Source: an uncultured Planctomycetota bacterium (GTDB lineage Bacteria; Planctomycetota; Planctomycetia; Gemmatales; Gemmataceae). Taken from it: a stretch of DNA of 64,000 nt. The stretch spans positions 1-64,000 of the forward strand of contig CAWKHF010000014.1 in NCBI GenBank assembly GCA_963849325.1, written 5' to 3'. Below are positions 7,924 to 28,482 of the stretch, one piece after another; position 1 is the stretch's first letter; the number at the start of each line of letters is the position of its first letter. Below the pieces are notes generated by a model that worked only from the letters and a program-made list of their open reading frames with translations, searched no databases and had not been told where the DNA came from. Both the position numbers and the translations under genes were made by a program.

Positions 7924-8109
7924 CCTAATACCCCGCTTAGGTGCGCCCTAATACAGATAGCTCAAACCTAGGGCACCTCGCTGTCAAGCGAAAAATCCTC
8001 AACCTGTGCCGTTTTAATTTGACGATTTAATCGAGCCGATTGGAGGGACAATCGAAGGTTGCCCTCCTTCGCTTACGCTTCAAGCTCAGAGGCGTTAAGA
8101 ACGCAGGTA

Positions 8110-9667
8110 TCAGAATCGTTGCGAGCCGATCCGGTACGCCGATGCTAGGGCCAGACCCCACCAGAGCACCCCGAAGGGCAGGGCAAGCGGCAACTGTTGG
8201 CGCAGCGCCGGCAGGAAACCAGGGGCCAGTCCGAGCACGCCCACAAGGGCGAGCGCGGTCAGCACCAGGGCGAACGCGCCCGAGGGCGACGGAGCCGTGA
8301 TTGCCAGCCCCGCGCAGGACACCCACACCGATGACGACCGCGCACGGCCAGGCCAGCCCCAGGGAATGAATACCGAGTTGGGACGCCGCCAGCAGTAGCA
8401 GAATGAATGCGATCGCGGCGGCAGTCAGTCCGAGTGCCGTGCCTCTCAAGACCTGCCGGCACCGGGCGGATCGATCCGGCGCGGGGAGCGCAACGGACTC
8501 GGGGGCGCGTCCATCATGTCGCCCTTGCTCGACCAGGGACTGCAAAGCGGAGGCCATTCGCTCCTTCTGCTTTGGCGATGGGGGGGCGTGGACGTTGGGT
8601 TGGTAGTCGCGGTTAGCGTGCAGGTAGGCGATCATCTGCTGCTCGAAAGCCGGAGTGAAAGAGAGACCAAGCTGGTCGTAGACTCGCCGCATGGTCCCGA
8701 GTGGATCGGCCTGGAGATCCTGCAAGCGAATCTCGGCGAGGTCGCCCGCGGGGATCAGCGCGCGCGTCCGCCGATACTCCTCCTCGGTGGCGACGAACTC
8801 GCCGAGCACGTACTCCTCCAACTCCTCCTCTTCAAGAGGCGGCTGGAGTCCGCAGATGTCCGTCAGCTGGCGAAGCATGGCCACGTTGGAGCGGAAGACC
8901 TTATGGGGATGTCGCGAAATGTAGACGAACTTTACGCCCGTGGTGTTCCGGTACAGATCCAGCAAGGCCGCGATGCGCGCCGTGTGCGCCGGTGTTTTCA
9001 GGAGGACACGCCGTCCTCCGGCCTGCGGCGCCAGCTTGCGTACGAAGGCGAGCTGATAGAGTCGCCAGCGCCGGCGCTCGGCGGGGGTCAGGTCTTTCAG
9101 GTCGTGGAAGCGGTCGTAGAACGGGTGGGCCTGCGGAAGAACGATTCGTCCGGGTAGGGTCGAGGCCAAGACCCCGTTGTTGAGGGCGAAATCGTCCTCG
9201 GCCGGGACCAGGGGACCGAAGGCGACGTTGTCCTGCGGCCGGTTTCGCGGGAAGAACGGTAACACGAACCAGCGGAGTAGGGTCCACGTCAGCCACCATC
9301 CCTGCGGCGCGAACGCCTGCCCCCAGTGCGGCGCGTAAAGGTTCGGGTCGCAACTCAGCAGGTACTGTAACAGGGTTGTTCCCGATCGGTAATAACCTAA
9401 AATGATGACCGGACCAGGCCGCTGTTTCTCCCGCTTCGACAGCCGCAGGTAGAGGGCAGCGATTATCCGTTCCGGCAGCGTGACGAGGGTGAACAGGGAG
9501 GACAGCAAGAGAGCGAATGCCAGGCGCGGCCAGAAGCGTGGCGAGATCGTCACGCGCGGCCGGAACAGCAAACGAAACCACACGTCCAGCGGGGCGAAGC
9601 CCATGAAATGAACGTGGGGGAACGGGATCGATCCGAGAACGGATGGAGCCGGCCGCATGGTTGTCAT
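8110..9667 (-). CDS. PAPS-dependent sulfotransferase with C-terminal membrane segments (frameshift ~8280)
   Basis: PSB motif IILGYYRSGTTLLQ, LLKTPAHT, SRHP..VFRS, and a hydrophobic C-terminus. Confidence 0.85.
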
Positions 9668-9677
9668 TTCTTTCCGA

Positions 9678-9722
9678 GCCGCTTGCGGCTTAGCGCGAGG
9701 AGCACGCTAAGCCGCAAGCGGC
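9678..9722. repeat. REP-like palindrome family A (also 25078-25127; half copies 16344-16361, 24071-24089)
   Basis: GCCGCTTGCGGCTTAGCG ... CGCTAAGCCGCAAGCGGC. Confidence 0.8.
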
Positions 9723-11003
9723 GGTAGCCGACTCTTGAAAGCGCTCCATCAACTCCCGTAGCCGGGGCAAGCCGGCGAGGATGGCCGGCGATGCGGGTCC
9801 GAAGTCGAGCAGGCAGGCGATCTCCTGCACGCCGATGTCCACCAGCTTGCCCACCAACTCCACACAGTCGTCCGGCGTTCCCATGAGCGAACGCTGCCGC
9901 AGGAACTTCTCGAAGGCCCACCGGATCGCCTCGTCCAGCTGCGCCGGCGTCAGACGGTCCAGCGCGATGGGGACATTGCGGCTCTGGGCCAGCTTTTCCA
10001 GCAATTTCAGGTTCTTCTTGAGGTAATCGCAGTACGGCTCGTAGGCGTTGCGGCGCACGTCCTCGGGATCGTCGGCGAGGTAGGTGTGCAGGGTGACGGC
10101 GACGCGGCCGGCGTCGGGGTCCCAGCCGTGTTCGGCCCGCGCCCGGCGATAGAGGGCGACCTTCTCGGCCAGCTCTTCCACTCCCTGGTCGAACAGGTGG
10201 GTCAAGACGTTGGCGCCGATCTCGCCGGCCTGCTGGAAACTGCGCGGGCTGCCCGCCGCGGTGATCCACAGAGGAAGCCGCTTCTGCACGGGCGTCGGAT
10301 ACGTGCGGACGCGGATCTTCTGGCCGCAGCCGTCGGTCGCCTCGATGGACTGGCCGCTCCAGAGCTGCTCGACCACCCGGATGCTGTCGTACATCGTTTC
10401 ATAGCGGCGGGCGTAGCGGGCGGGATGCAGAGCGAAGTCTTCCGCGTTCCATCCCGGCGCGAACGACAACTCGATGCGGCCCTTCGAGAGGTTATCGACC
10501 ACGGCCCACTCCTCCGCCACGCGGAGAGGATCGTGCAAGGGCAGGACGACACTGCCGGCGCGCAGGCGAATCCGTCGCGTCTCACGGGCCAGGGCGGCGT
10601 GCAGCACGGCCGGGTTGGGGTAGAGACTGCCCATTGCCGTGAAGTGGCGCTCCGGCAGCCAGACGGCCGAGAAGCCGGCGGCGTCCGCATACCGCGCCGC
10701 CTCGATCACCAACTCATACTTCTCCGCCGCGGCCTCGCCCTCGTCACCGCCGAAGAAGAGCAGGCCGAACGCGAGGGTCTTACGGGTCGGTCGAGGAGAG
10801 GCAATCGTCGGGGCCGTCCCTTGCCGCCGGACGTACTCCAGACAATCCTCGCGGGTCGAGGCGGGCAGCACCTCGCGCCAGCCTGCCGGGATCGGCTTGT
10901 GGGCCGGCCACAAGCTCTGACGGCCGGACTCGCTGCGCAGCACCCGAAATCGGGAGGATTCATTCGTCAACACGGCATCCGTCATAACACTCTCCGCGCT
11001 CAT
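9690..11003 (-). CDS. MbtH-like domain fused to luciferase-like flavin monooxygenase (LLM, natural-product type)
   Basis: QSLWPAHKPIPAGW...CLEYV (MbtH), then FGLLFF, WLPERHF, LYPNPAV, LHDPLRVAEEWAVVDNLSKGR. ATGA overlap with the upstream gene. Confidence 0.85.
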   Translation of the reverse strand: MSAESVMTDAVLTNESSRFRVLRSESGRQSLWPAHKPIPAGWREVLPASTREDCLEYVRRQGTAPTIASPRPTRKTLAFGLLFFGGDEGEAAAEKYELVIEAARYADAAGFSAVWLPERHFTAMGSLYPNPAVLHAALARETRRIRLRAGSVVLPLHDPLRVAEEWAVVDNLSKGRIELSFAPGWNAEDFALHPARYARRYETMYDSIRVVEQLWSGQSIEATDGCGQKIRVRTYPTPVQKRLPLWITAAGSPRSFQQAGEIGANVLTHLFDQGVEELAEKVALYRRARAEHGWDPDAGRVAVTLHTYLADDPEDVRRNAYEPYCDYLKKNLKLLEKLAQSRNVPIALDRLTPAQLDEAIRWAFEKFLRQRSLMGTPDDCVELVGKLVDIGVQEIACLLDFGPASPAILAGLPRLRELMERFQESATAACGLACSSR

Positions 11004-14000
11004 GCGTAATACAGGGCGCACCACACCTGCAAGCCGGCTGCGACTTCGATCAACAAGACCGGAGCGCCGGCCGTGAGCCGGCCTTCCTGGCGGACCTTCT
11101 GAAACGCGAAGGCCAGGGACGACGTGAAGTAATCGCGCTCCGCGCCGACGTTGACCACCTTTTCGATCGACATCCCCAGACCCTCGGCGATGACGTTCTC
11201 CCAGCCTCCCCGGCCGCTGCGGCGGCACCAGCAGGCCAACGTCCGCCGGCGAAAGCGACTCGCGGGCAAGGAACTCGCGCACCACCCGGCACACGCATTC
11301 GACCTCCCGGTCTTCCAGAGCCGCGTCCCGATGGTGGAAGACAGCGGGCTTGTCTTCATGGACGCCGGTGGCGCTGACGATGGCGTCGAGGTGTTCGGGG
11401 AAGGCGCGGAAGCCGAAGGCCGCGAACCCTTCGCTGCCGCCGGACTCTTCGAGGACCAGCGCCGACGCCGCCTCGGCACGGGCAGCATGGCCCTCGGGCC
11501 GCAACTCGCGGCAAGGCTCGACCTCGGAGGCGATCACGAGGGCCCGCGAAAACTTCCGCGCCGCCATCAACTCGGCGGAGAGGAGGCAGGCGGTCAGCGT
11601 CCCGCCCGCGCCGTTGAGGACGTCGAAGGCCAGCGTCCGCCGTTCGCCGAGTTGCTTGTCGTCGTGGTTGATGGCCAGCTCGCCGGCGGCGATGCTGGCG
11701 ACGGACGGCTCGGCGAGAAACTCACTGCGGTACACGCCGGTGTGGATCACGACGTCGATCTCGTCGCGCGGCCGGGCCGAGCGTTCCAGGCAAGCCTCGC
11801 CGGCGCGGCGGACCAGGTCGATGGTCTCCGCCGGCCCGTCCGCCGACCGATCCACGGTGGCGATGCTTTCCAGACGCACGCGCCGCTGACAGTGGAAGTG
11901 CCGTAGCGGCTCGGCCGGCCGCGCCGGCGCTGCCTCTCGCGGCCGCGGCGGTTGTCGCAGTCGCTCCGGCAGATCATCGAAGGTGTACAGAGCGGTGCCG
12001 ACGGTCTGGCCCGAACCGCTCACCGCGAAGACGAGCCGTTCTCCGGCCGCGAAGCGCCCGGCCTGGATCGCCTCGTAGACGGCCAGGAAGTGCGTGTTGG
12101 TGGCGGTGTTGCCGCGCTCGGCGACGTTGTAGAGCGTGTTGCCGCGATGACAGAACGGCTGACCCAGGGCGCGATTGATCTCCTGCACCGCGCCGTCCAG
12201 CGTCGTCTCCGAAGTCTGGTGGATGACCAGCCCCTTGACCGTATCGAGGTCCCAGCGCCGGCGCCGCAACATCTCGGCGGCATGGCCGACGGCTTGCTTG
12301 ATGGTGACGACCGTGCTCGTCACCGAATCGGTGTGCATGACGGGTCCGCTGCCCGGTACGGCAGACAGCTTGGCCACGCACAGGTCATGGTATTTGCCCA
12401 GCGTGTATAGCTCGACCTCCTGGAAGCCGACGTCGGCGGTCGGCGCCCGGCCCAGCAACAGCGCCACCCCGGAATCGCCGAGGGTCAGGCACGGCAAACG
12501 CGGGTCCATGAAGCCCGCGATCTCCTGCTGGGCCGTCCGCATTAGGTGAGTGATGTATTCGCCGCTGACGATCAGGACGCGCCGGACGACGCCCTGGCGA
12601 AGAAGCGTGTCGGCCAGTAGGATCGCCGTGAAGGTGCCGGCGCAGGCGTTGCTGAGGTCGAAGGCCACGGCGTTGACCAGGCCGAAGCGGCGAGCGATGC
12701 GGGCGGCGGTCGCCGGCTCCAGCGAGAAACGATACGGGCCGTCATAGCGAGAGATGTTGCAGCAGATCAGCAAATCGATTTCGTCGGCGCGCACACGCCG
12801 CTCGCCGCAGACACTCGGCGGCGGCCTTCTCGGCCAGGTCGAGAGAGAATTCCGTATCGCCGGCGACGCGGCGGCTGCGGATACCGGTCAGTCGCTCCAG
12901 CGGGAACTCGATCTTGTTGCGGCAGTCGCGCAATACCTGTTCGGTCGTAACCGACTTTTCCGGTAGATAAACGCCGATACTCTCTACCAGAGCACCGGCT
13001 CGCTGGGTGTCGGAAATAGGGACCAGGGGCTCGGAAGCAGGGACGAGGGACGAGGGACGAGGGACTAGGGAAGGAACTGGCTCCCTGTCTTCCCTATTCC
13101 CTAGTCCCTGGTCCCTAGTCCCTGTTTCGAGGGCCGCGGCCAGTTCGGCGATGGTCTGATGGCGGAACAGCATTTCCGGCGTCACGGACAAGCCTTGCTC
13201 GCGGGCCAAGGCCGACACCTCCAGCGTCTGCGTCGAGGCACCGCCCAGCTCGAAGAAATGATCGTGGATGCCGACGCGCTCCACTTTCAAGACACGCGAC
13301 CAGATGCGCGCCAGTTGATGTTCCAACTCCATCCGTGGGGCACCGGAAGACGTTTCGGCCTCTCCGTTCGATGCGCCCACCGTCGCCGGATCGGGTAATC
13401 GTGTTCGGTCCAGCTTGCCCGTGGTGCCCAGGGGGAAGGCGTCGAGCGTCACGACGGCGGCCGGCAACATGCAGCGCGGCAGTCGTTCGCGGAGATGGGC
13501 GCGGACGCCCGGTAGGGAGAAAGCGTTCCCCTTGCGCGGCACCACGTAAGCGGCCAGGCGCGGCGCGCTGCCGTTGTCTTTCCACACGACCACCGCCGCG
13601 TCGAGGACGTCAGGGTGACGCCGAAGGACTTCCTGAATCTCCTCCAGCTCGATGCGATGTCCGCGGATTTTCACCTGATGATCGGCACGGCCGAGGAATT
13701 CCAACTCGCCCTCCGCCGTCCAGCGGACCACGTCGCCGCTGCGGTACAGGACCGCCTCGTCGGCCTGGTCGAACGGATTGGGGAGGAAGCGCTCGGCGGA
13801 CAGGTCGGGCCGGTTAAGATAGCCCAGGGCCACGCCTGGCCCAGCGAGGTACAACTCTCCGGCCACACCGACCGGCACGGGCCGAAGATCGCCGTCCAGC
13901 ACATAGACACGAGCATTGGCGATCGGCCGGCCGATGGTCGGCGGTCGTCCTCCGGGCACACATTCGGCGAGGGTGGCCCAGACCGTCACCTCGGTCGGGC

Positions 14001-16315
14001 CATAGGCGTTGAAGAAGCGCCGACCGGGCGCCCAGGTACAGACCAACTCGGCCGAGCACGCTTCGCCCGCCACAATCAGCGTCCGCAGGGCCGGCAGAGG
14101 TTCGGCCGGCACCATCACCAGGACTGAGGGCGGCAAGGTGACGTTGGTGATTCGTTCCTGGCGCAGCATCTCCCATAACGGCCGACCCGGCAGGAGGGCG
14201 GTTTGGCTGCCCAGCACCAGCGTCGCCCCGGACGCTAGGGCCATCGCCAGCTCGAAGACAGAGGCATCGAAACTGAACGAGGCGAACTGGAGCACGCGAT
14301 CCGCGGGGCCGGTTGCGAAGGACTTTTGCTGTGCCGCCCACAGGTTACACAGACCACGATGGCGCAGCACCACGCCCTTGGGCTGCGCCGGTCGAGCCGG
14401 ACGTGTAAATAAGGTAAGCTCGCTCCTCTGCCGACAACGGCAGACCGAGGTCCGTATCGCCTCGTCCCTGGATCTCCGTCTCGGCTCGGTCGAGCAGCAC
14501 GACCGGCAGCGGCAGGGGCGATTCGGAAGCCAGGGTGATCGCCGCCGCCGGGCGGGCGTCGGCGAGGACACCCTCGCGTCTCTTGCCGGGGTCCGACGGG
14601 TCGAGGAACAGAAACGCCGCTCCCGCCTTCCACACCGCCAGCACCGACACGATCAGATCCGGGCCGCGCGGCAAGCTGATCGCCACCGTGTCTCCCGGCC
14701 GCACGCCCATCGTCCGCAGGTGACGCGCCAGCCGATTCGCCCGCCGATTCAACTCGTCATAGGAGAGCGTGACGCCCTCGAAGGACACGGCCGGCGCCGC
14801 GGGTGTCTTCTTGACCTGCTGCTCGAACAGTTCGTGGAAGCAACCCGAGGGATAAGGGGTCTCCGTCCGATTCCAGTCCCCCAGGATTTGTTGTTTCGCG
14901 CCGGCCGACAGAACCTCCGCCTCGCTCAGCGGCGCGTCGGGAGAGGCGGTCAGCGATTCCAGCAGCGTATCGAAGTGCCCCACCCAGCGCCGGATCGTGG
15001 TGGCGTCGAACAGGTCCGAATTGTAGCGGAAGCTGGCGACGAGCTTCTCGCCGAACTCGAAAACGATGAGTGTCAGATCGAACGGAGCGCCGCGCTGTTC
15101 CATCAGCAGCGTCTCCACGGGCAACCCTTGTCCGGCCGTCTCACCGGAGGCAGCGAGGTCGCGCGGCTTGTCCCAGACGAACATCGCCTGGAAGATCGGC
15201 GGACGGGCCGGATCGCGTTTCACGTGCAGTTGTTTGACCAGCAGACCGAACGGGTAAGCCGAATGCTCCAGGGTCTGGTGTACCTGGTCGCGCGTCTCTT
15301 CCAGCAGCCGGCGGAAAGAGTGATCCGAAGCGAACGAGGTCCGCACGACTACCTGGTTGAGGAAGTAGCCGACCACCCGCTCCCATTCGGAGCGTTCGCG
15401 GCCGGCCACCGGAGTGCCGACCAGGATGTCGTGCTGGCCGCCGAGCCGGTGCAGCAGAAGCTGGAAAACGGCCAGCAGGGCCATGAAGCGCGTGGCGCCG
15501 TGTTCGTCGGCCAGAGAGCGCAGCTTGCGGACGACCTCGGCATTCAAGGTCCAGGAATGGGCGGTGCCGTTGTAGGTCTGGACGGGCGGACGGGGCCGAT
15601 CCGTCGGTAGTTCCAGCGCCGGCAGCTCGCCGGCAAGGAGGTTATGCCAGTATCGTTGCGCCTGCCGGCCACGCTCGCTGTACGCCTGCACGGTCTCCCA
15701 GCGGACGAAATCGGCGAATCGCGCCGACGTTGGCGGCAGTCGTGCGGCTCGGCCGGCACGCAGGTCGAGGTAAAGCTGCCGCAGTTCCTGGATGAGCAGG
15801 TCGGCGGACCACAGGTCGGCGATGATGTGATGGAACGTCATCAGGAGCACGAATTCCGCCGGCGCGCGGCGAAACAGCTCGATGCGCAGGCACGGCGCCC
15901 GGCCGAGGTCGAACGGTACGTCCGCCTGCCGGCGGGCCGTTTCTATCAGGCGCTCCTCGCTCCACGACGAGGCATCGGTCACGGGGATGTCGAGGGGAAC
16001 TTCCCTCTCCACCTGCTGCATCGGTTTGTGATCGCGCGCGAGGAAGCGGGTCCGCAGGGCGGGATGGCGATCCACCAAAGCCCGGCAAGCGCGGCGGAGG
16101 ACGGCCGCGTCAACCGCGGCGGGGATGCGGGCGGCGTAGAGGAAGTTGTAGGCGGGACTGGCCGGCGCCAACTGGTGCAAAAACCACAACGAGGCCTGGC
16201 CATGCGAGAGCGGCACCGGATCCTCGGAGCCGCCCGGCTGCAGGCCGAGCAGGTGTTTCACCAGTTCCTGCTTTTCCTCGACAGGCAAGGCGTGCAGTAT
16301 CGATCGATCGATCAT
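11000..16315 (-). CDS. NRPS C-A-PCP fused to two OleA/KAS III-like domains (frameshifts ~14390, ~12795, ~11200)
   Basis: C: HHIIADLWS. A: YTSGSTG..KG, FDASV, NAYGPTE, YRSGD, GRADHQVKIRGHRIEL, GKLDR. PCP: FFELGGAST. Thiolase-fold domains: DLSNACAG/HQTS/GNT and FDVLNGAGG. Confidence 0.85.
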
Positions 16316-16361
16316 CGCTTGTCCTCTCCGTTCCGTGCTGCTCCGCAAAGCCGCAAGCGGC

Positions 16362-19300
16362 TTACTCCAAAAGCGATTCCAGAAGTCCGTCGAGTTTTTC
16401 CTCGGGAAGCTGGTCTACGTTCTCCGAGGTAAGGCCCGCCGGCGGTCGCGGTCCCGTCGGGCGCTCGTCGGGCTTTTCGCTCAGCGCCGCCGCCGCCCGG
16501 TCCCGAATCTGGCCCAGGCTCAGCCCACGGAGGAAATCGACCACGGACAGGGACAGCCCCAGGTGGTCCTCGATCCGGTTGCGCAGCTGAATGCCCGTCA
16601 GGGAATCGAGTCCGAATGCCTGCAACGGTTTGTCCACGTCGGACGCGGAGACGTCCAGGCCGAGGACGTTGCGCAGCTGTCGCCGTAGGTACTCCTCAAT
16701 CAGCCGGCGCCGCTCCGAGGGAGGGGCCGACAGGATCGCCTTGCGGTCGAGGTGCCTCGTCTTTTCCGTGCCGTTGACGCTGGCAAGCTCCGGCGCCGGT
16801 GTTCCCGGAACGTAGCGCTGGCCGCCCCGATAAGCCACCACCCGCTGCTCGTCGGAGTGGCGGAGGGTCTGATACAAGCATTCCACCTGTTCGGCGGCGG
16901 ATTGATTCGGATCGAGGTCGATGAGACCCATCGATCCGTCGGCTCGCGGAGGGAAGAGCGATTGCCACTCCGCGGAAGACACCTCCGCTGTCTCCCTCCC
17001 CGGGAGGCAAGGAGCCGCGCCGCGCGTGACGACCCACGTCCCGGACAGTGAGTCGTTCGTGCAGACACGGGAAGGGTCATGCTGCCGGCAACTGCAAGGA
17101 GGTCTGGCGAGTGCGCCTGCCCCGTCCGTGAAGTCCACCAGGTAGATCGCCGCTCTCGGGTCGGAGGGCCGGATTGCCTCGGTGATGCAGGAATCGCCAG
17201 GGGCGAGACGAACAACCGTGCCTCCATCCGCCTTCAACCTCGCGGCCAGGGCGTCCGCCAGGTTCAGCCGGTCCCCGGCCAGGATCCAGGTCGTCGAGGT
17301 CCGGGCCGGCCCCGTGGACCCGTTTCCGATGGGACTGATACCGTTCTTTCGGAACGTGGGCTTCGCTGCTGCTGACAGGCTGGTGTCATTGCGAGCCAGG
17401 ATGACTACCTGGTCGGGGTCGGGCAATTGCGCATCGGCGGCGGGAAGGGCCGCGACGTTCCGCAAAACCTTCGTCGGCAAGCAGGCGTCCCCAGTCCGCG
17501 GGCGGCAGCAACGGGTATTGGGGCCGCAGCTCCAGGTCGGCGAATTTCCACCATCCCTCGGTCAGGCCGAAGATAAGGTCCAGCAAGCGCCGCGGCCCCG
17601 TCCCTTCGAGCAGGACCAGGACACCGCCGGGAGCCAGCAGACGACGCGCCGTGCGGACGCTGCTTCGCAGGTCCGGGGTGGCGTGCAGCACGTTGGCTGC
17701 CAGGACCACGTCGAATTGGCCGTCCGCGAAGCCCTGCGGTCCCGGAGCTTTTTCCAGGTTGAACGTGCGGTACTGGACGAAGGGGAACGCCTCGAACTTG
17801 GCGGAGGCCTGGGCGACGAACAGCCGCGATACGTCGGTGAAGACGTACTCGACCCGATCCGGCGGCAGGGCCGGCAGGACGTGCGCCGTGGTGCCGCCCG
17901 TGCCGCCGCCGACCTCCAGAATGTGGACGGGGCGATGGTCGGCGAGGCGCTCGATCAGGCGAGACAGCGAGCCGACCACCAGGTCGTTATAGAAGCGCGC
18001 CACCGGAGATTCCCGATACAGCCGCTCCGTCCAGGAGGCGGCCTCGTCGCCGAACAGAACGTCGAGCGGATCGGCCTCGCCGCGCAGGACGCGGTGCATC
18101 CGCGTGGCGCAGCGATGGGCCAACCGCAAGTCCGCCTCGAAAGTCGGATGACGGCCGAGCAGGTCGCGGTGCCAATCGCCAACGTCCCCCGCAGCGGGCA
18201 TGCGGATCACGCGCCAGCCGGTCTCCGTGCGGGCGAGCCAGCCGTCCTCCGCCGCCATCTGCAACAGCCGGCCGAGAAGCCGGTGGTAAGAGGGAATCAC
18301 TTTCAGCCGTCCGGCCAGTTCGTCGTCGCACACCTCGTCGCCGGGTCGCGGGGTCCAGCCGAGACGGCGCAGCGTGTCCACGACGTAGGCACCGGCCAAG
18401 CGATCAAATTCCTCTCTCAAGGGTATGAATTGTTCGATCCGATGCTTGGCTCGCAGCGGGGGAACGAGCGCAGCGGCGTCGGCGAGAGTCTCGAACCCCG
18501 TTGCTCCGCGGGGCAAGTGCTGGCGCCAGTTGGAACAGGGTCTCCAGTGGAGGCTTTCGCCAGTCCCACGGGAAGGTTTGGCCACGGCGGCAACAGGCGG
18601 CCGAGTGGGGGCGATGGCATCGACCCAGTAACGGAAGCGCTCGAAGGGGTAGGTCGGCAAATCGACGCGCGGGCGATGGGGCCGGCCATCCATCTGCTCC
18701 CAGCTCACGTTTGCTCCGTCCGCGTACAGACGGCCAAGGGCCGCGAGCATCTCTGCCTGATCGCTGCCTCCTCGCCGTAGCGACGACCGCCAGACTGTAC
18801 CCTCCATCGCCTCCAGGCAGGCCGGGCCGAGCCGAGAGAGGACGGCGTCGGGTCCGACCTCGACGAAGTGCGTGATACCGGCCTTGTGGAGCGTGCGGAT
18901 GCCGGCGGCGAACTGCACCGGCCGGCGGGCGTGCTCCGCCCAGTATTCCGGCGCGGGGATGGCGTCGAAAAAGGCGCCGGTGACGTTGGAGACGAGGGGG
19001 ATGGACGGCGGGCGGTGCGACATTCGCGCGGCCAACTCGCGCAGTCCCGGCAACGTCGGCTCGATCAGGGACGAATGGAAGGCGCGGCGGACGTGCAGCA
19101 GGCGGGTCTCGACTCCCTGGGCCGCTAATTCCTCGCGCAACGCCGTCGCCTCCGCGGCGTATCCGGCGACGACGATGCTGTCCGGGCCGTTGACCGCGGC
19201 GACGTCCGAGACGTCCGCCCCATCGCCCGACATGATTTCGTACCACATCCAGCGGCGCGAAGCACACCAGCATGGCGCCTTCGGGACAGTCCTGCATGAG

Positions 19301-22300
19301 CCGCCCGCGCCGGACGATCAGCTCCAGGGCGCTCTCCAGCGGCAACACGCCGGCCACGCATGCCGCCACGTACTCTCCGACGCTGTGGCCCAGCAGCGCG
19401 GCCGGCTGGACGCCCCATGCCCGCCACGTCTGCGCCAGGCGCGTATTCCACGGCGAAGAGGGCCGGCTGGGAGACATCGGTCTGCTCCAACCGTTCCACG
19501 TCGCGCAGAAGGTCCGGCAGGTTTTTCATGCCGAGGGCATCGAGGATGTCGGCGCAGCGATCCAGCGTGCGGCGATAGGTGAGGCACGATTCGTACAGCT
19601 CGCGCCCCATGCCGGCGTACTGCGCGCCCTGGCCCGTGAACAGGAACGCCACCCGGCCCGTCCAGCTCGCGCGCGGCCTGTCCTTCCTGGCAGGCGGGGT
19701 GATGGCCCGTCTCGGCCCAGGCGGCGAGGGCCGTGGACAAATCCTGAACCCGTGGCGCCGATCACGGCGAGCCGATACTCGAAGTGACATCGTTCTCGGC
19801 TGGCGGCGGCGCAAACGTCCTCCACCGCGACGTCGGGGTGGTCGCGCAGCCATCCGGCGAAACGGCGCGCCAGCTCGCGCAGCGCCGTCTTACTTTTGGC
19901 CGACAGCGGCAGAAGATGACAAGGTGACAAGGTGACAAGGTGACAAGGTGAACGGAGAACTGCCGCGGTTGCGGCCTCTCTGTTTCTCGTGTGTCCCTGG
20001 CTCTCTTGCGACAAGGTCACCTTGTCACCTTGTCTCCTTGTCACCTTGTCATCTTCGGGGGCTTGAGCGACGAGGACGTGAGCGTTGGTGCCGCCGAAGC
20101 CAAAGGAACTGACGGCGGCCAGCCGCGGACGTTGCTCGTTGGGCCAGGGGGTTAGCTCGCGGGGAATGTGGAAGCGCGTGCCCGCGAGTCCGATGCGCGG
20201 GTTGAGATTTTCCAGGTGCAGGTGCGGGGCGATCTGGCCGTGATGGACCTGCAAGACGGCCTTGATCAGACCGGCGATGCCCGCCGCCGCTTCCAGATGG
20301 CCGAGGTTCGTCTTGACCGAAGACAGGGCGCAGGGCACGGTCGCGGAACCCAGGGCGGCTTGCAGAGCGTCGAACTCGATCGGGTCGCCCAGAGAGGTGC
20401 CGGTGCCGTGGGCCTCGATGCAAGACACGTCGTCGGGGGAACGGCCGGCGAGCCGGAGCACGCGACGGATTAGCTCGGTCTGCCGTGCGCCGTTGGGGGC
20501 GGTGATGCCGTTGCTCTTGCCGTCCTGATTGACGGCCGACGCCTCCACAACCGCGAGGATGCGATCGCCGTCGCGCACGGCCGCCGACAGCGGCTTGAGG
20601 ACGACGACACCGCAGCCCTCGCCGCGGACGTAACCGTCGGCGGCGGCGTCGAACGTCTTGCACAGGCCGGCCGACGACAACATGCCGCCGTGCGACAGTA
20701 CCTCGGTCAGATCCGGCGTGAGGATCAGATTGACGCCGCCCACCAGGGCCAACTCGCACTCGCCCAGCCGCAAGCTCTGACAGGCCAGGTGGATCGCCAC
20801 CAGCGCCGAAGAGCAGGCCGTATCGACGGTCACGCTCGGGCCGTGCAGGTCGAGATGATAGGACAGGCGATGCGCGGCCATGCTGGCCGCATTGCCGACA
20901 CCCGCGTAACCGTCGGAGGCGCAGCCGTGCGCCAGCAGCAGCCGACTGTAATCGTTTGTCGAGGCACCCACGAACACGCCCACGGGACGGCCGGCCAGGC
21001 CGTCCGCGGGCAAGCCGGCGTGCTCCAGCGCCTCCCAGGCCGTTTCCAGCAGCAAACGATGTTGCGGATCGATAAAGACGGCTTCTCGGGGAGCGATGCC
21101 GAAAAACGGAGCGTCGAAACAGGCGACGTCCGCCAGGTATCCGCCTCGCGTCGTGGCCGCGCCCTCGGCGGCGCGCTCCCAGCGACCTTCGGGCAACTCG
21201 TCAATCACACAGCGGCCATCTCGGAAGACCTGCCAGACCTCGTCCGGCCCGTGGGCCGTGGGGAAACGACAGCCGATGCCGACGACCGCGATCGACTGGC
21301 GCCTCGCCTCGCAGGCAGGAGCCTCCAGCTTCACGTCAGCCACGGAGTCGCGGGCCAGGACGCCGACGAGGGCGCCGACGGTCGGAGCGCTGTACAACAG
21401 AGTCGGCGATAGGGGACGGCCCAGCCATTCTTGCAGGTCGGAAGCCAGGGCCGCCAGCGCCAGGGAACCCATGCCATAGGCGGACCAGGGCTTGTCCGCG
21501 TCGATCTGATCGGGCGGCAGTTTCAAGAGCCGGGCCATCCGAGCCACGAGCCAGTCGCGCAGCGCCTCGGAAGAAGTGGCGAGTGGCGAGTGGCGAGTGG
21601 CGAGGGAAGAAGAAGCCTCTTCACTAGCCACTGACCACTGGCCACTAGCCACTTCTTCCGAGGCACGTTCGATAGCGTTGAGTTCTCCGTCTCGGAAGCG
21701 ACGGGCACATTCCTGGCGCTGCACTTTGCCGCTAGAAGCCCGCGGGATCGAGCCGACCTTGACCAGCAGCAAGTGGTGCAACTCCAACTCGAACAACTCG
21801 GCGAGGCGTTCGCGGATGCGGGCGAATAACCCCTCGCCTCCGCCGGGCTTGTAATCGCGCGCCACCTCGAACACGAGCACCAGTTCGGTGCCGGACTCTC
21901 CCTCGACCGCGAAGGAGGCGCCGGTCTGTCCGCCCAGTTCGGGACAGGCGTCCGCGGCCGCCTCCTCCAGGTCGTGCGGGTAGAAGTTACGGCCCCGGCA
22001 GATGATCAGGTCCTTGCACCGGCCGCTGATGAAAAGCTCGCCTTCGTGGAAGAAGCCCATGTCGCCGGTGCGCAGGAAGGAGAGTTCCGGGTCTGAAGGA
22101 CACCGAGCCTGAAACGTCTGCGCCGATTCTTCCGGCCGATCCCAGTAACCGCGGCGCGACGCTGGGACCGGACACCCAGATTTCTCCGATTCGCCCCTCG
22201 GAAAGCGGTTCGGCGCTGGCCGGATCGACGATGCGCACGGTCAGGTCCGGCAACGGCCGACCGCAGCCGACCATCGGCTGTCCGTCGCCTTCCAGCTCGA

Positions 22301-23385
22301 CTCGTTTCTCGCCCAGGGCCGACCGCGAGAACGAGCGGACGATCGGAGGCGCGGTCCGGTCGCCGCCCGTCACCATGAGCGTCGCCTCGGCCAGACCGTA
22401 GCAGGGGAAGAAGGTCTCGCGGCGGAAGCCATACGGGGCGAAGACCTCGGCGAAGCGGTCCAGCGCTTCCGCGGCCACCGGCTCGGCGCCGACGTAGGCC
22501 ACCTTCCAGCAGCTCAGGTCCAGACCCTGACATTTCTCCGGCGTCATGCGCTGGACGCAGTGGCGGAAGGCGAAGGTCGGCCCGCCGCTGACGTAGGCCC
22601 GCCGCGCGCTGATCGTCCGCAGCCAGAACATCGGCTCCTGAACGAAAGCGGCTGGCGGAAGGACCGTCATGGGCAGGCCGGTGAAGACTGTCTGCAACAG
22701 GTTGCCGATCAGCCCCATGTCGTGAAAAGCCGGCAGCCAACACACGGTGTCCGTCTGGGGGGTCAACCCCAGGATTTCCCGCATACGGGTCAGGTTGTGG
22801 AGCAAGGCGGCGTGGGTCAGCATCACGCCCTTGGGCAGCCCGGTCGAACCGGAGGTGTACTGGAGGACGGCCAGGTCGTCGCGTCCGATGCTCGGCACGG
22901 GACACGTCCCGGCGTCGCTCTCCGCGATCGCGGAGGTGTCGAGCCAGTCGAGGGCTTGCAGCCGAGGCACTCGCGCCGTCAGCCGCCCCAGGTCGCGGAG
23001 GGTTTTCGTGTTCGTCAGGGCCAGGACGGACCCCGAATTCTCGGCCACGCTTTGCAGGCGCACGTCCGAGCGGTTGGCCCGCGGCGGGTAGAGGGGAACG
23101 GCGATCACGCCGGCATACAGACAGCCGAACAGGCCGACCAGGAAATCCAGACCCGGAGGGTAGCAGAGCAACGCCCTCTGCCCGGCCCGGCCTGCGGAGC
23201 ACGGAGGCGACGGCACGGGCTTGCCGGTCGAGCTGGCGGAAGGAGAGGCGGACCTCCTCGGCGCGGCCGTCCGCGAGGAAGGCATAGCCGTGGACGCTGC
23301 CTTCTTCGGCCCGAGCCTGGAGCGAATGAATCAGGCTTTCGTTGGTCGAGCCGTTTATGAGGGCGATGCGCGACATAGCAATCAT
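16362..23385 (-). CDS. type I PKS: FAAL-ACP-KS-AT-MT-(KR remnant)-ACP (several frameshifts)
   Basis: [119 protein letters not shown]. Confidence 0.88.
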
Positions 23386-23699
23386 GGGGCAGAGGCCAAT
23401 CCGAGGAAACCTCGGTGGTGATCATTCGGTGCGAGAGGATCTCTCCCCTCCACCTCGACTCTTTTCCTGTACGGCACCAACCGAGAACTGTGACACAATC
23501 TTGCCCGGAGACCGCGAGGGATTCAAGGATAAAGGCAATCTTCTCGCCAATATCCCAGGACGCCCCGTCGGAAGAAAATGCCCAATCCACGTCTTCGCCA
23601 AAGACCATCGGTTCGAGACGCTGATTGATTCTCCCTTCCTGGTTGAATCCGCACGGAAGGCGGGCCGAATCGACGATCGCGGCCCGTTTGTGGCTACCC

Positions 23700-23812
23700 T
23701 GGAAAAAGAAGCCGGCATGGCCGAACACCCTGAGGTATTCGATCACGCCGGCTTACTCGTCAACGGACCCCCCGGCATGGCCGGGTTGTCCTTCATCTAG
23801 TCATCCGACGAT
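23700..23812 (-). promoter_or_regulatory. candidate structured leader RNA with intrinsic terminator (attenuator/riboswitch) upstream of the PKS operon
   Basis: Nested stems, then a 21-bp hairpin followed by CTTTTT. A duplicated 12-mer allows an alternative pairing. Confidence 0.55.
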
Positions 23813-24126
23813 TACAATCGAAATCTTTAGCGCAGTTGGTGAAAAGCTCACTGCGACTCCGCTACGTTTTGTCATTCTACGGCTCGGGACCGGGAAAGCA
23901 AGGGGATTGTCGTTCCGCGCCCGCTATCCCGCTATCCGAATCCCCAGCTCGACTGGGAATCGAGAGTTCGCATGGACTCGACCCCGATTGCCCGTTTCGC
24001 CGCAAGTTGACGGGTGCCAAAGGGCTGCCTACAATTCGGGTGCGATGGCTGCCGCTTCGCCTCGGGAGAACGCTAAGCCGCAAGCGGCTTGGCGGAGGCG
24101 GCACGTCTCGAAGAAAGGGAGTTCCC

Positions 24127-25065
24127 ATGAAACGTTTGATCGCTTCCGTCGTCCTTCTCGGTCTGTTCGTCGTCGTCGGCACGTCCTGCTGCGCCGGCCG
24201 ACAGGACCGCAGAGCGGAGCCGGTCGCCCCGGAGGTGACGCCGCGAGCCGCCGAACCGGACGAGAAAGTTGATCTGACACCCAAGGCGCTCGATCGCATC
24301 CCGGTCGGCACTGTCATCGGCGCCGCGCGCCGAAGGGTTGGTCCAACCTGGTTCTGTTCGCCATCCCGACGTTGACGCGCGAGGACGAGCAGTCCGCGCC
24401 GCGCATGGCCGCCCACTACGCACAAGCTGTTCAAGTTCACGGTGCTGGCCAACGTCGCGCGCGGCAAGGGCGGCGACAAGGCCCCATTCTATCTGCAAAA
24501 AGTCGCGCGTGGCTTCGCCACGACCATCGACGGCAAGAACACCATCGTCAGCGGCGCCAACACGATGGGCGCCGACCTGGGTCTGTTCGGTCGTCGCATC
24601 CTCGACGAGAACGAGAAGGTCCTCGACGAGGATGTTCGGCAAGTGGTCCGCAGCAACACCATGCTGATCTTCGACGCCCAAGCGGTCATGCTGCGGGGCG
24701 GCGATCACGTCAACATGATCATGCGTCACGCCCTCCTGGTCGATCCGGCCAGCGGCCGCCTCTACACGCTGGTGTGGCTGCTGACACGAGATTATCAGCC
24801 GGCCGAGAAGGCCATCCAGCTGCTGCCCGAGGGGATGCGCGAGAAACGGCTGCTGAGCGTCAAGCGCGATAAGTTCTCGGCGCTGGGCATCCCCAACCGC
24901 GACGCCTTCGCCCTCCGACAGCTTCCCCAGGGCACGGCGATCCCTTACACGCCGGCGCTCAAGGAGGCGGCCAGCGTCAAGAAGTTCCAGGAGTTGCAGG
25001 TGCCCAAGATCGAGGAGACGCTGCGAACCGTGGCGGCGACAACGGCCGCCAAGACCGCCAAGTGA
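24127..25065 (+). CDS. hypothetical lipoprotein (frameshifts ~24325, ~24425)
   Basis: MKRLIASVVLLGLFVVVGTSCC signal peptide; AAAGGGAG RBS. Confidence 0.65.
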
Positions 25066-25151
25066 GCTTCGACCCCAAGCCGCTTGCGGCTTAGCGTTGG
25101 CCGCCCTACGCGAAGCCGCAAGCGGCTCGGATTCTCGGGGAGTGCCTCGCC

Positions 25152-26143: not shown

Positions 26144-26338
26144 TGTTCTTCTCCACCTAAGTTCCTCCGCGGCGCGGCTAAACGGATTTGGAGAGTTGTA
26201 ACGCCTGACTTGGATGGGCAAGGTGGAAAAACGCTCCGGCCTCTCTGGTAACGCGAACGGGGACAATTTTATGATGGATTGGACAGCCATTCGCGCTTCG
26301 GTCCCCCGACCCGTAACCGAGAAGAGAGCCTTTCGCCA

Positions 26339-28482
26339 ATGTCCCAGCCCACGCGGAACAGCCTCGAACTCTGTTCGTCCGTCGAACCGCCTGACACCCT
26401 CTTCCGTCTGGCGCGTCATCGCGCCGGGGAGCACCCGGACGTTCGCGGTTACACCTTCCTCGCCGACGGCGAGACGGAAGAGCAGATCCTGACCTACGGC
26501 GACCTGGACGCGCGGGCGCGGGCGATCGCCGCCCGCATTCAGTCCGTCTGCCGTCCGGGCGAACACGTCCTGCTGCTGTACGGCCCGGGCCTGGATTACA
26601 TCGTCGCCCTGTTCGCCTGCCAGTACGCCGGCGTCGTCCCTGTCCCCGCCTATCCGCCGGATCCCCTGCGAGCGGCGCGGACGCTGTCGCGGCTGCAGGC
26701 CATCGTGACCGACTGCGGAGCGAGCCTGGCGCTGGGCAGCGACGAACACCTCGGCTGGCTCGGCGGCGCCCTGGCCGGCGATTTGGGGCTACGGCTGGCG
26801 CTCTCGACGGAACGATGGCCGGAGTGGACGGGATTGCCGTGGACCGCGCCGGAAACGCACCCCGACCAGGTCGCCCTGTTGCAGTACACGTCCGGCTCGA
26901 CGGCCACGCCGCGCGGCGTCATGGTGACGCACCGCAACTTGTGGTTTCAATTTCAGGGGATGCAGGTCGCCGATAGCGACGACTCGGCCGGCGTGAGCTG
27001 GCTGCCGCTGTATCACGACCTGGGCCTGATCGGCGGGGCCTTGACGCCGATCTACTTCCGTCGTCCAGTGACGCTGATGTCGCCGTTAGCCTTCGTCCAG
27101 CGACCTCTGCGCTGGCTGCATGCCATCTCGCGCTACCCGCGCTCCCATCACGGGCGCCCCCAACTTCGCCTTGGACCTGTGCGTGAGTAAGTTCTCTCCC
27201 ACCGAGGCGGAAGGGCCTCGACCTGTCTTGCCTGCGCGTCCTCCTGACCGGGGCCGAGCCAGTGCGGTCCGATACGCTCGACCGCTTCACCGCAACCTTC
27301 GCTCCGTATGGCCTCTCCTCGAGGGTTTGGTGTCCCTGTTTTGGCCTGGCGGAAGCGACCCTCGGCGTGACGGCCGCCACCGACGCCGCGCAGGTGCGAC
27401 GACTGGACTTCGCGCTCCGCGAACTGGAACGCAACCGAGCCGTGCCCGTAACGGGCACCGGCGAGCCATGTCGTCGCCTGGTTGGCTGCGGCCGGCCCCT
27501 GGAAGGCAGCGAGGTACTCGTCGTCGATCCGCTCCGCCGCACGGCCCTGCCGGATGGACAGGTCGGCGAGATTTGGGTACACGGACCCAACGTGGCACGC
27601 GGCTACTGGAACAAGCCGGAGGAGACCGAAGCTCTCTTCCACGCCCGCCTGGCCGACGACGGCGAACGGGGGCCATACCTGCGAACCGGCGACCTGGGCT
27701 TTTTCCACGACGGGCAACTGTACCTGACGGGACGGATGAAAGAGACGATGGTGTTCTGGGGCCGCAATGTCTACCCTCAGGACGTGGAGAGGACGGTCGG
27801 CTCCTGTCATCCGTCCTTGAAGCAAAACGGCGGCGCCGCCTTCGCCGTCGAGGTGGACGGCCGGGAGCAGTTGGCCGTGGTGCAGGAGGTCGTTCGCCCC
27901 GGCAAGGTCGATCTCAACGCCGTTGCCGACGCCGTCCGCCAGGCGGTCCAGGCGGAGCACCTCGTTCCTCTGCATGTCCTCGTCCTCATCAAGCCGGGCA
28001 CCCTGCCCAAGACCTCCAGCGGCAAGACGCAGCGCAACCTGGTGCGCGAGCGGTTCCTGGCCGGCGAACTGGCCGTGGTACGACGGTGGCACTCCGCGGT
28101 TGAGGGAGAGGCGGCGCCCGCCGCGATAGAAGGGCGAGCGTTCAGCCGCGAGGAGATTCGCTCCTGGCTGGTGGCTCGCGTCGCCCGGCACTGCCAGGTG
28201 GCCGAGAGCGAGATCGATCCCGGCCTGGCCATCAACAGCTACGTCCTGGATTCGGTCAGCGCCGTTACGATCGCCACGGAGCTTCAGGACTGGCTGGGCC
28301 GAACCATCTCGCCGACGGTACTCTACGATAGCCCTTCGCTCTCGGTCCTGGCCGGACGACTCGCCGACCCGCCCACGCAAGTCCCGGTGGTTGCGGTCGA
28401 GAAGCTGACACCCGGCGAGCTGGACGACGTCCTGATGCGGTTGCTCGGGGATTCGGGCGAGCCGCTATTTCCCAACCACTAG
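26339..28482 (+). CDS. stand-alone fatty acyl-AMP ligase-ACP didomain (frameshifts ~27135, ~27215)
   Basis: [57 protein letters not shown]. Confidence 0.88.

Follow-up and report, generated by a model that had tools for sequence, protein, structure and literature searches.

Terminator/antiterminator platforms are found in transcriptional ON riboswitches, e.g. adenine pbuE and guanidine-I ykkC. Antiterminator proteins of the BglG/SacY/LicT type act on RAT hairpins, and HutP acts at the terminator of the Bacillus subtilis hut operon, where its binding sites are spaced NAG triplets. Csr-type sponges carry many GGA motifs, mostly in hairpin loops. In Planctomycetota, to our knowledge, almost no gene regulation has been characterised. 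The stretch of DNA analysed here (the window), 64,000 nt from an uncultured bacterium of the Gemmataceae, carries on its minus strand a leader RNA that can be compared with each of these systems.

As in ON riboswitches, this RNA is promoter-proximal, and its closing helix and the terminator 5' arm have nucleotides in common; termination by default and read-through in a stabilised state are predicted, and many copies occur per genome. Unlike in ON riboswitches, the leader is a single rod hairpin with internal loops and precedes a mixed stress regulon. With RAT hairpins it shares the irregular hairpin, conserved internal loops, the overlap with the terminator 5' arm and a linked protein gene in or beside the operon. 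However, this genome (84.7% complete) gave no match to CAT_RBD (PF03123), for which control matches were obtained in 4 of 14 genomes, a sugar-PTS context is lacking, and the candidate partner, DUF2294, has no recognisable RNA-binding fold. As with HutP, the antiterminator could be a small protein whose gene adjoins a leader with a terminator; unlike in the HutP system, no match to the HutP family (PF09021) was found in this genome, in a comparison at the level of the protein family. An invariant GGA in a single-stranded segment and the presence of csrA genes in several of the putatively controlled operons recall CsrA-binding leaders, whereas, unlike Csr/Rsm RNAs, the 120 copies share one conserved GGA, which is base-paired or lies in a loop in the antiterminator fold. 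The pattern found is that of a rod hairpin set against a strong terminator, standing before stress-type genes and linked to DUF2294 (52/58 genomes; 63/120 copies) and often to CsrA. Judged by these analogies, the leader would resemble a transcriptional ON riboswitch or a protein-dependent antiterminator of the RAT/HutP type and is no member of those families; its partner is possibly of a new kind. One candidate cis-regulatory RNA motif, Rhodopirellula-1, has been reported from Planctomycetes and is not in Rfam (Weinberg et al. 2010, PMC2864571). It was considered as the identity of the leader and rejected, as the supplementary Stockholm alignment of that report shows a different sequence and structure.

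The element lies in a 745-nt divergent intergenic region, flanked on the minus strand by a FAAL gene (ATG at 23385) and on the plus strand by a lipoprotein-like gene starting at 24130. Its parts and surroundings are the following.

23815-23702, minus strand: leader RNA core
23901-23896 and 23879-23874, minus strand: promoter-like site with a weak -35 box TTGCTT, a 16-nt spacer and a -10 box TAGAAT, recognised from the sequence
Near 23868, minus strand: likely transcription start
23829-23858, minus strand: optional 5' hairpin P0, CGCAGU/ACUGCG plus AG/CU, from the MFE fold of the 169-nt RNA
23808-23805 and 23804-23802, minus strand: predicted antiterminator 5' strand, UCGG plus the loop nucleotides A-U-G, from alignment and pairing
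23755-23801, minus strand: rod-shaped irregular hairpin with loop CAU, from the RNAalifold consensus and compensatory changes
23801-23799 with 23757-23755, minus strand: rod helix P1a, ACU/AGU
Above P1a in the rod: P1b UGA/UUG, P2 GGAC/GUCC, a tandem A/G internal loop and P3 CCCGGC/GCCGGG
23791-23788 and 23768-23765, minus strand: P2, GGAC/GUCC
23785-23771, minus strand: P3 hairpin, CCCGGC-CAU-GCCGGG
23748-23754, minus strand: double-use segment AAG-CCGG, the predicted antiterminator 3' strand (loop AAG plus CCGG) and at once the first 7 nt of the terminator 5' arm
23709-23754, minus strand: intrinsic terminator hairpin of 21 positions with loop UCAG, from the fold and 16 of 21 covarying pairs
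23702-23708, minus strand: U tract CUUUUUC, from the sequence, with a T run in 120 of 120 aligned copies
23386-23701, minus strand: non-conserved spacer of 316 nt, from the end of the U tract to the ATG of FAAL
8027-23385, minus strand: co-oriented genes FAAL-ACP-KS-AT-MT-ACP-C-A-PCP, then KASIII/MbtH/luciferase-like and sulfotransferase, from Pfam

In the minus-strand sequence, the terminator hairpin 23754-23709 holds three G-U pairs and one A-C mismatch; it is G+C-rich and directly followed by a U tract, as is typical of intrinsic terminators. It does not belong to an upstream gene, because no minus-strand gene lies upstream in the divergent region. A 131-nt stretch folded at -62.4 kcal/mol, compared to -43.45 +/- 3.81 in 200 shuffles, none of which was as good (z = -4.97), and the 169-nt RNA reckoned from the likely start gave a z of -5.79. 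An earlier note, made from the letters of this DNA, had proposed a folded leader RNA with a terminator. That the leader is structured and conserved and closes with an intrinsic terminator was borne out by the 120 copies and their covariation described below, and the features which it had named (GGAC/GUCC, CCCGGC-CAU-GCCGGG, the 21-position hairpin and the UCGUCGG and UUGACGA stretches) are all present on the minus strand. The motif reaches further 5' than had been noted earlier, as far as the -10 box at 23879-23874 and the optional hairpin at 23858-23829.

The leader belongs to a multicopy family. Comparison by BLAST of the 745-nt intergenic region with 40 relatives gave matches confined to positions 203-428 of the query, almost all of them at 320-428 (23811-23703 of the window) and 74-90% identical, with many copies in some genomes. 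A covariance model built from 33 copies collected out of the relatives' flanks identified three leaders in this genome, i.e. the window copy, one on contig 6 at 174721-174835 and one on contig 5 at 8813-8927. With this model the leader was detected in 57 out of 150 further genomes of the taxonomic family, in up to at least 24 copies each, and in 46 of 90 genera of that family, counting this genome; among 150 other genomes sampled over the whole phylum it was present in five. A pattern scan of 185,579 species genomes yielded at least 132 stretches. Among the matches listed, the record titles name Gemmataceae, Isosphaeraceae, Pirellulales, Planctomycetaceae, Thermoguttaceae, Phycisphaerae, Tepidisphaeraceae and 'Kuenenia' MAGs; the single non-planctomycete locus among them (L110) was not confirmed by the covariance model at E up to 1e-5. 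A second set of 88 unique full-length copies was taken from 80 loci and, together with the first set, made up 120 unique copies, which were aligned with MAFFT blind to structure. In some loci the leaders stand close together. Tandem leaders 7-19 nt apart with one gene behind them were observed at L079 (1872-1986 and 1993-2107) and L125 (1462-1575 and 1594-1707), an arrangement that resembles tandem riboswitches. Locus L020 (2506-5510 of contig 1035 in genome G012) holds four leaders within 3 kb, one of them on the opposite strand, and the genes behind these encode a desaturase, a DUF1344-like protein, CsrA and an unassigned protein; the regulon is clustered in some genomes.

Rfam 15, the comparison proposed in the earlier note, holds no family that matches this leader: the window region 23000-24500 gave, at E up to 10, a chance miRNA match elsewhere only, and 20 loci with family copies gave no match at the gathering score. 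No description of the motif was found in the literature, judged from titles and abstracts. The leader therefore appears, on sequence comparison, to be an uncatalogued family, phylum-wide in Planctomycetota, and a new family of a known kind of device.

Over the whole structure (RNAalifold consensus and pair counts), 94.4% of cells in the 120 unique copies were paired, compared to 31-52% when the partners were slid by 1-3 columns. The covariation among homologues to which the earlier note had looked is present: compensatory changes occur in 24 of 35 pairs, and none of 500 shuffles matched any of the measures. They are found in 8 of 11 pairs of P1b-P3 and in 16 of 21 pairs of the terminator, each with 94.0% of cells paired, and P1a shows none, since the columns of ACU/AGU never vary over the 120 copies. 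The best-kept columns are GGA-N-GAC near the 5' end and AGUAAGCCG directly before the terminator. Invariant in all 120 copies are the GGA and the G of the 5' segment. In the segment AAG-CCGG, A, C, C and G are invariant, A and G are kept at 90% or more, and the seventh position, R, varies between A and G.

A promoter-like signal precedes the core in many copies. In 62 of 120 copies the hexamer TANN[AT]T stands 55-78 nt ahead of the GGA, whereas a control window of the same size at -50 to -27 holds it in 15, and 14 further copies carry a -10-like hexamer 15-26 nt before the GGA. For the window leader a consensus promoter scan gave no call because its -35 box is weak (3 of 6 matches). Perfect stems of at least 7 bp between the distal -10 box and the core were found in 86 of 120 copies compared to 42% of shuffles, and the optional P0 hairpin is missing in copies whose -10 box is some 20 nt away from the core; no conservation of the sequence 5' of UCGG was detected outside the window's own family. 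The divergent lipoprotein-like gene is preceded by a sigma-70-like promoter of its own at 24007-24035 (plus strand; TTGACG, 17 nt, TACAAT; 10 of 12 matches). The 5' UTR of this gene, which starts at 24130, also contains a dispersed palindromic repeat (24050-24092, core about 22-40 nt) with 47 further matches in this genome, several of them as inverted pairs; in the window a second copy is found at 25075-25120 and a pair at 9674-9722, and the repeat is frequent in related genomes and has a REP-like look.

How the helix that closes the rod and the terminator could exclude each other is suggested by the segment which they share. UCGG pairs with CCGR in at least 94% of copies at each pair, the sole variation being U-A to U-G. 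Together with ACU/AGU this gives an interrupted helix with a symmetric 3x3 loop in between (A-H-G opposite A-A-G), which is almost invariant and reads A-U-G opposite A-A-G in the window; the loop presumably recalls the GA-rich internal-loop motifs of rRNA. The antiterminator 3' strand doubles as the base of the terminator 5' arm. Folding of the 120 copies predicted a mean pair probability of the antiterminator helix of 0.90 in nascent RNA, i.e. RNA without the terminator 3' arm (over 0.5 in 93% of copies), and of 0.00 in full-length RNA. P1a reached 0.89 in nascent RNA and the base pairs of the terminator 0.99 in full-length RNA; a control for the pairing of the 5' tail with CCGR, in which the tail was shuffled, gave 0.35 in nascent RNA, all these values being energy-based predictions. 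The mutually exclusive folds that the earlier note had envisaged are thus borne out as a thermodynamic prediction. The antiterminator consists of 4 + 3 bp in invariant or one-sidedly variable columns and shows no compensatory changes, because the helix barely varies. On these models the conserved competitor of the terminator would be the 5' strand UCGG...ACU.

A crude ORF call placed the nearest downstream ORF in the same orientation in 84 of the 120 copies and on the opposite strand in 22; ten copies had no ORF call and four too little downstream sequence. Orientation relative to downstream genes, a further check named in the earlier note, is thus non-random: of the 106 callable copies, 84 have the nearest ORF in their own direction, a number that rises to at least 95 after a Pfam check, as 11 of the 22 contrary ORFs overlap a co-oriented gene with Pfam support. 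The median distance of the co-oriented starts from the U tract is 65.5 nt, and 60 of the 84 lie no more than 150 nt away; a Pfam-supported co-oriented ORF starts within 150 nt in 46 of 88 copies. Counts of downstream Pfam families were 24 of 120 copies for MpsC/DUF2294, 6 for CsrA, 4 for YflT and 3 for KaiC. CsbD, Hsp20, Hsp70, Transgly_assoc, DUF1328, and sigma-70 and ECF sigma factors were found as well, and so were histidine kinases, receivers, P-type ATPases, fatty-acid desaturases, ice-binding-like proteins and ferritin. From these annotations the downstream genes look like a general-stress regulon. In addition, a FAAL gene lies 70 nt behind one copy (L117) and a condensation-domain gene 68 nt behind another (L125).

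The operon behind the window copy is itself broken in places. At least three frame breaks split single Pfam domains, at 23190-23285 (FAAL N-terminus), 17386-19477 (AT) and 12742-16348 (A), in an assembly of 14 contigs; these breaks may be assembly indel errors or may mark a decaying cluster. A 1034-codon frame at 9690-12794 (minus strand) holds a KAS III domain followed by MbtH-like and luciferase-like monooxygenase domains and is either an unusual fusion or a set of genes read as one. A second FAAL-ACP, with AMP-binding, DIP2-like AMP and PP-binding domains, is present at 26279-28482 (plus strand), split over two ORFs. The leader is missing from all 29 homologous FAAL loci compared, which come from 23 other genomes and are in part truncated at contig ends, and the 316-nt spacer is non-conserved; the window copy therefore looks, on this comparison, like a recent recruitment to the operon. 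Indeed, the closest relatives of the window leader stand before operons with DUF2294, in two genomes that belong to the same genus. The ORFs in the spacer gave no Pfam match, and the spacer could hold a promoter of its own. The window copy may plausibly control the PKS-NRPS operon (about 15 kb).

One protein family, DUF2294 ('MpsC', PF10057), co-occurs with the leader. It was found in 52 of 58 leader-positive genomes compared to 30 of 93 leader-negative genomes, the 151 genomes being related and hence non-independent samples; six leader-positive genomes thus lack it, and 30 genomes have the protein and no detected leader. Among the 120 leaders, the DUF2294 gene lies divergently upstream within 900 nt in 33, downstream in 24, and on both sides in 12; at least one such gene is present in the flanks examined of 63 leaders and none in those of 57, including the window copy. 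Proteins of the divergent type A keep 65-86% identity from order to order and share only 22-29% with the downstream type B. This genome holds three DUF2294 genes: a pair flanks the leader on contig 6, the third lies at a distance of 2.2 kb from that on contig 5, and the window's contig has none. The contig-6 locus (L038, 173508-175335) combines a divergent DUF2294 type A gene with the leader and, behind it, genes for DUF2294 type B, for a response-regulator receiver and for CsrA, and looks like the family's core module in this genome.

MpsC has been described as dispensable for the MpsAB transporter after which it is named (PMC6689103), and a literature search with the term 'DUF2294', judged from titles and abstracts, returned an unrelated match only. 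A PDB sequence search with DUF2294 gave no match at E up to 1. The AlphaFold model of type A was poor from a single sequence (pLDDT 55.2) and good with a 60-sequence alignment (pLDDT 89.5, pTM 0.81). With this model Foldseek found weak matches only (Bet3/TRAPPC3, YslB and H-NOX; E 0.01-0.05, TM 0.37-0.46), and a wide VIA-align structure search gave unrelated proteins at a best Z of 6.8. The predicted fold would thus speak neither for nor against RNA binding. From the genome counts, the linkage between leader and DUF2294 is real at the genome level and makes the protein a candidate partner only; the adjacency may merely reflect that DUF2294 is the commonest regulated gene.

Taken together, the window element is probably an ON-type transcription attenuator, one copy of a phylum-wide family of 5' leaders acting as conditional terminators. 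Termination, read-through, an effector and control of the operon are what we infer from the family, its structure, covariation, orientation and predicted two-state fold. Transcription would start at the sigma-70-like promoter that lies some 60 nt before the core. While the RNA is still nascent, UCGG (23808-23805) and ACU (23801-23799) would pair with AGU (23757-23755) and CCGG (23751-23748), and this helix would close the rod hairpin, build the 3x3 loop and occupy the first seven nucleotides of the terminator 5' arm. Unless something stabilises this helix, it would give way to the 21-bp terminator (23754-23709) and polymerase would stop at the U tract; a factor holding the internal-loop helix would allow read-through into the downstream gene, here the FAAL-PKS-NRPS operon. 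As to this factor, a DUF2294/'MpsC' type A protein acting in trans is the foremost candidate, at a chance somewhat short of even, and no such gene lies near the window copy. A small molecule or ion comes next as a possible effector, CsrA or another protein has a slight chance, and what is left falls to no effector or to temperature.

The alternative that survives best is a metabolite- or ion-sensing riboswitch, in which the rod hairpin with its internal loops would be the aptamer and a small ligand would stabilise the antiterminator. A promoter-proximal conserved structured RNA directly followed by a terminator is the standard layout of transcriptional riboswitches, many copies per genome before varied genes are also seen with riboswitches for signalling molecules or ions, and the 57 copies without a DUF2294 gene in the flanks fit a ligand as well. 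However, the conserved part is a single irregular hairpin in which no multi-helix junction or pseudoknot was detected, the regulon points to no pathway or ligand, and co-occurrence with one protein family is strong at the genome level. This alternative is considered possible, though doubtful.

A free-standing small RNA with its own promoter and terminator, titrating CsrA or acting by base pairing, is unlikely. In that case the window copy would not control the operon, which would suit its own -10 box and strong terminator, the GGA invariant in a single-stranded 5' segment, the six downstream operons with csrA, the nine csrA genes of this genome, and the next gene lying 316 nt off in an arrangement that is not conserved. 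Against this, Csr-type sponges carry many GGA motifs and the family has a single conserved one, the 60 of 84 co-oriented ORFs that start within 150 nt leave no room for a separate promoter, and co-orientation is far above 50% in both the crude and the Pfam-checked counts. The terminated leader of an attenuator could act in trans as well.

The antiterminator drawn in the earlier note was a different one and has become very improbable. There, P1 (UCGUCGG/UUGACGA) enclosed an aptamer, and the upstream copy of a repeated 12-mer, located in P3, replaced the 3' arm of the terminator. Both complementarities exist in the window copy: the window indeed contains exactly two instances of the 12-mer (23712-23723 and 23772-23783; 0.10 expected), and in 12 copies of the leader one P1 pair has changed from G-C to U-A. 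Over the 120 copies, however, only 76.8% of P1 cells are paired, its probability in nascent RNA is 0.00 and its 3' strand belongs to P1b, which has the better support. Of the 120 copies, 47 break pair 9:66, a count that also applies to the C-G pair, and 49 break pair 7:68. In the 14 copies with a -10 box 15-26 nt before the GGA, transcription would moreover start too late to include the P1 5' strand. The swap of 12-mers is peculiar to the window copy, since sharing of at least 8 nt between P2/P3 and the 3' arm was found in 2 of 120 copies, and the longest common substrings between them averaged 4.72 for own pairs and 4.61 for cross pairs. P1 and the 12-mer antiterminator were therefore rejected at the level of the family.

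That the element is no RNA at all, and instead a mobile or REP-like DNA repeat or a coding gene (a 17-codon minus-strand or a 152-codon plus-strand ORF), is hardly credible: the family is multicopy, clustered in some genomes and overlapped by open frames, but compensatory changes keep the RNA pairing, the leader holds one orientation towards the genes behind it, identity between copies of a single genome is only 74-90%, and the leader peptide and the plus-strand ORF are ruled out by AUGs and starts that are not conserved, loop indels that are not multiples of three and overlapping ORFs that lack a Pfam match.

If the leader is the conditional terminator proposed here, one RNA device in dozens of copies per genome would stand before classic stress genes (CsbD, YflT, Hsp20, DnaK, KaiC and sigma factors), and the general stress response of the phylum would become directly testable. 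It may be speculated, tentatively, that the DUF2294 type A proteins are a new family of RNA-binding antiterminators that read the 3x3 loop, and that together with the leader they form a general stress master switch across Planctomycetota, based on constitutive promoters and conditional termination and not on an alternative sigma factor. In the window this switch would have been recruited to the FAAL-PKS-NRPS cluster, whose unknown lipopeptide-like product would then be made only under stress. The leader would also provide a first functional lead for DUF2294/'MpsC'. Furthermore, a conditional terminator before a silent PKS-NRPS cluster suggests a route to its activation, by deletion of the terminator or by the inducing signal.
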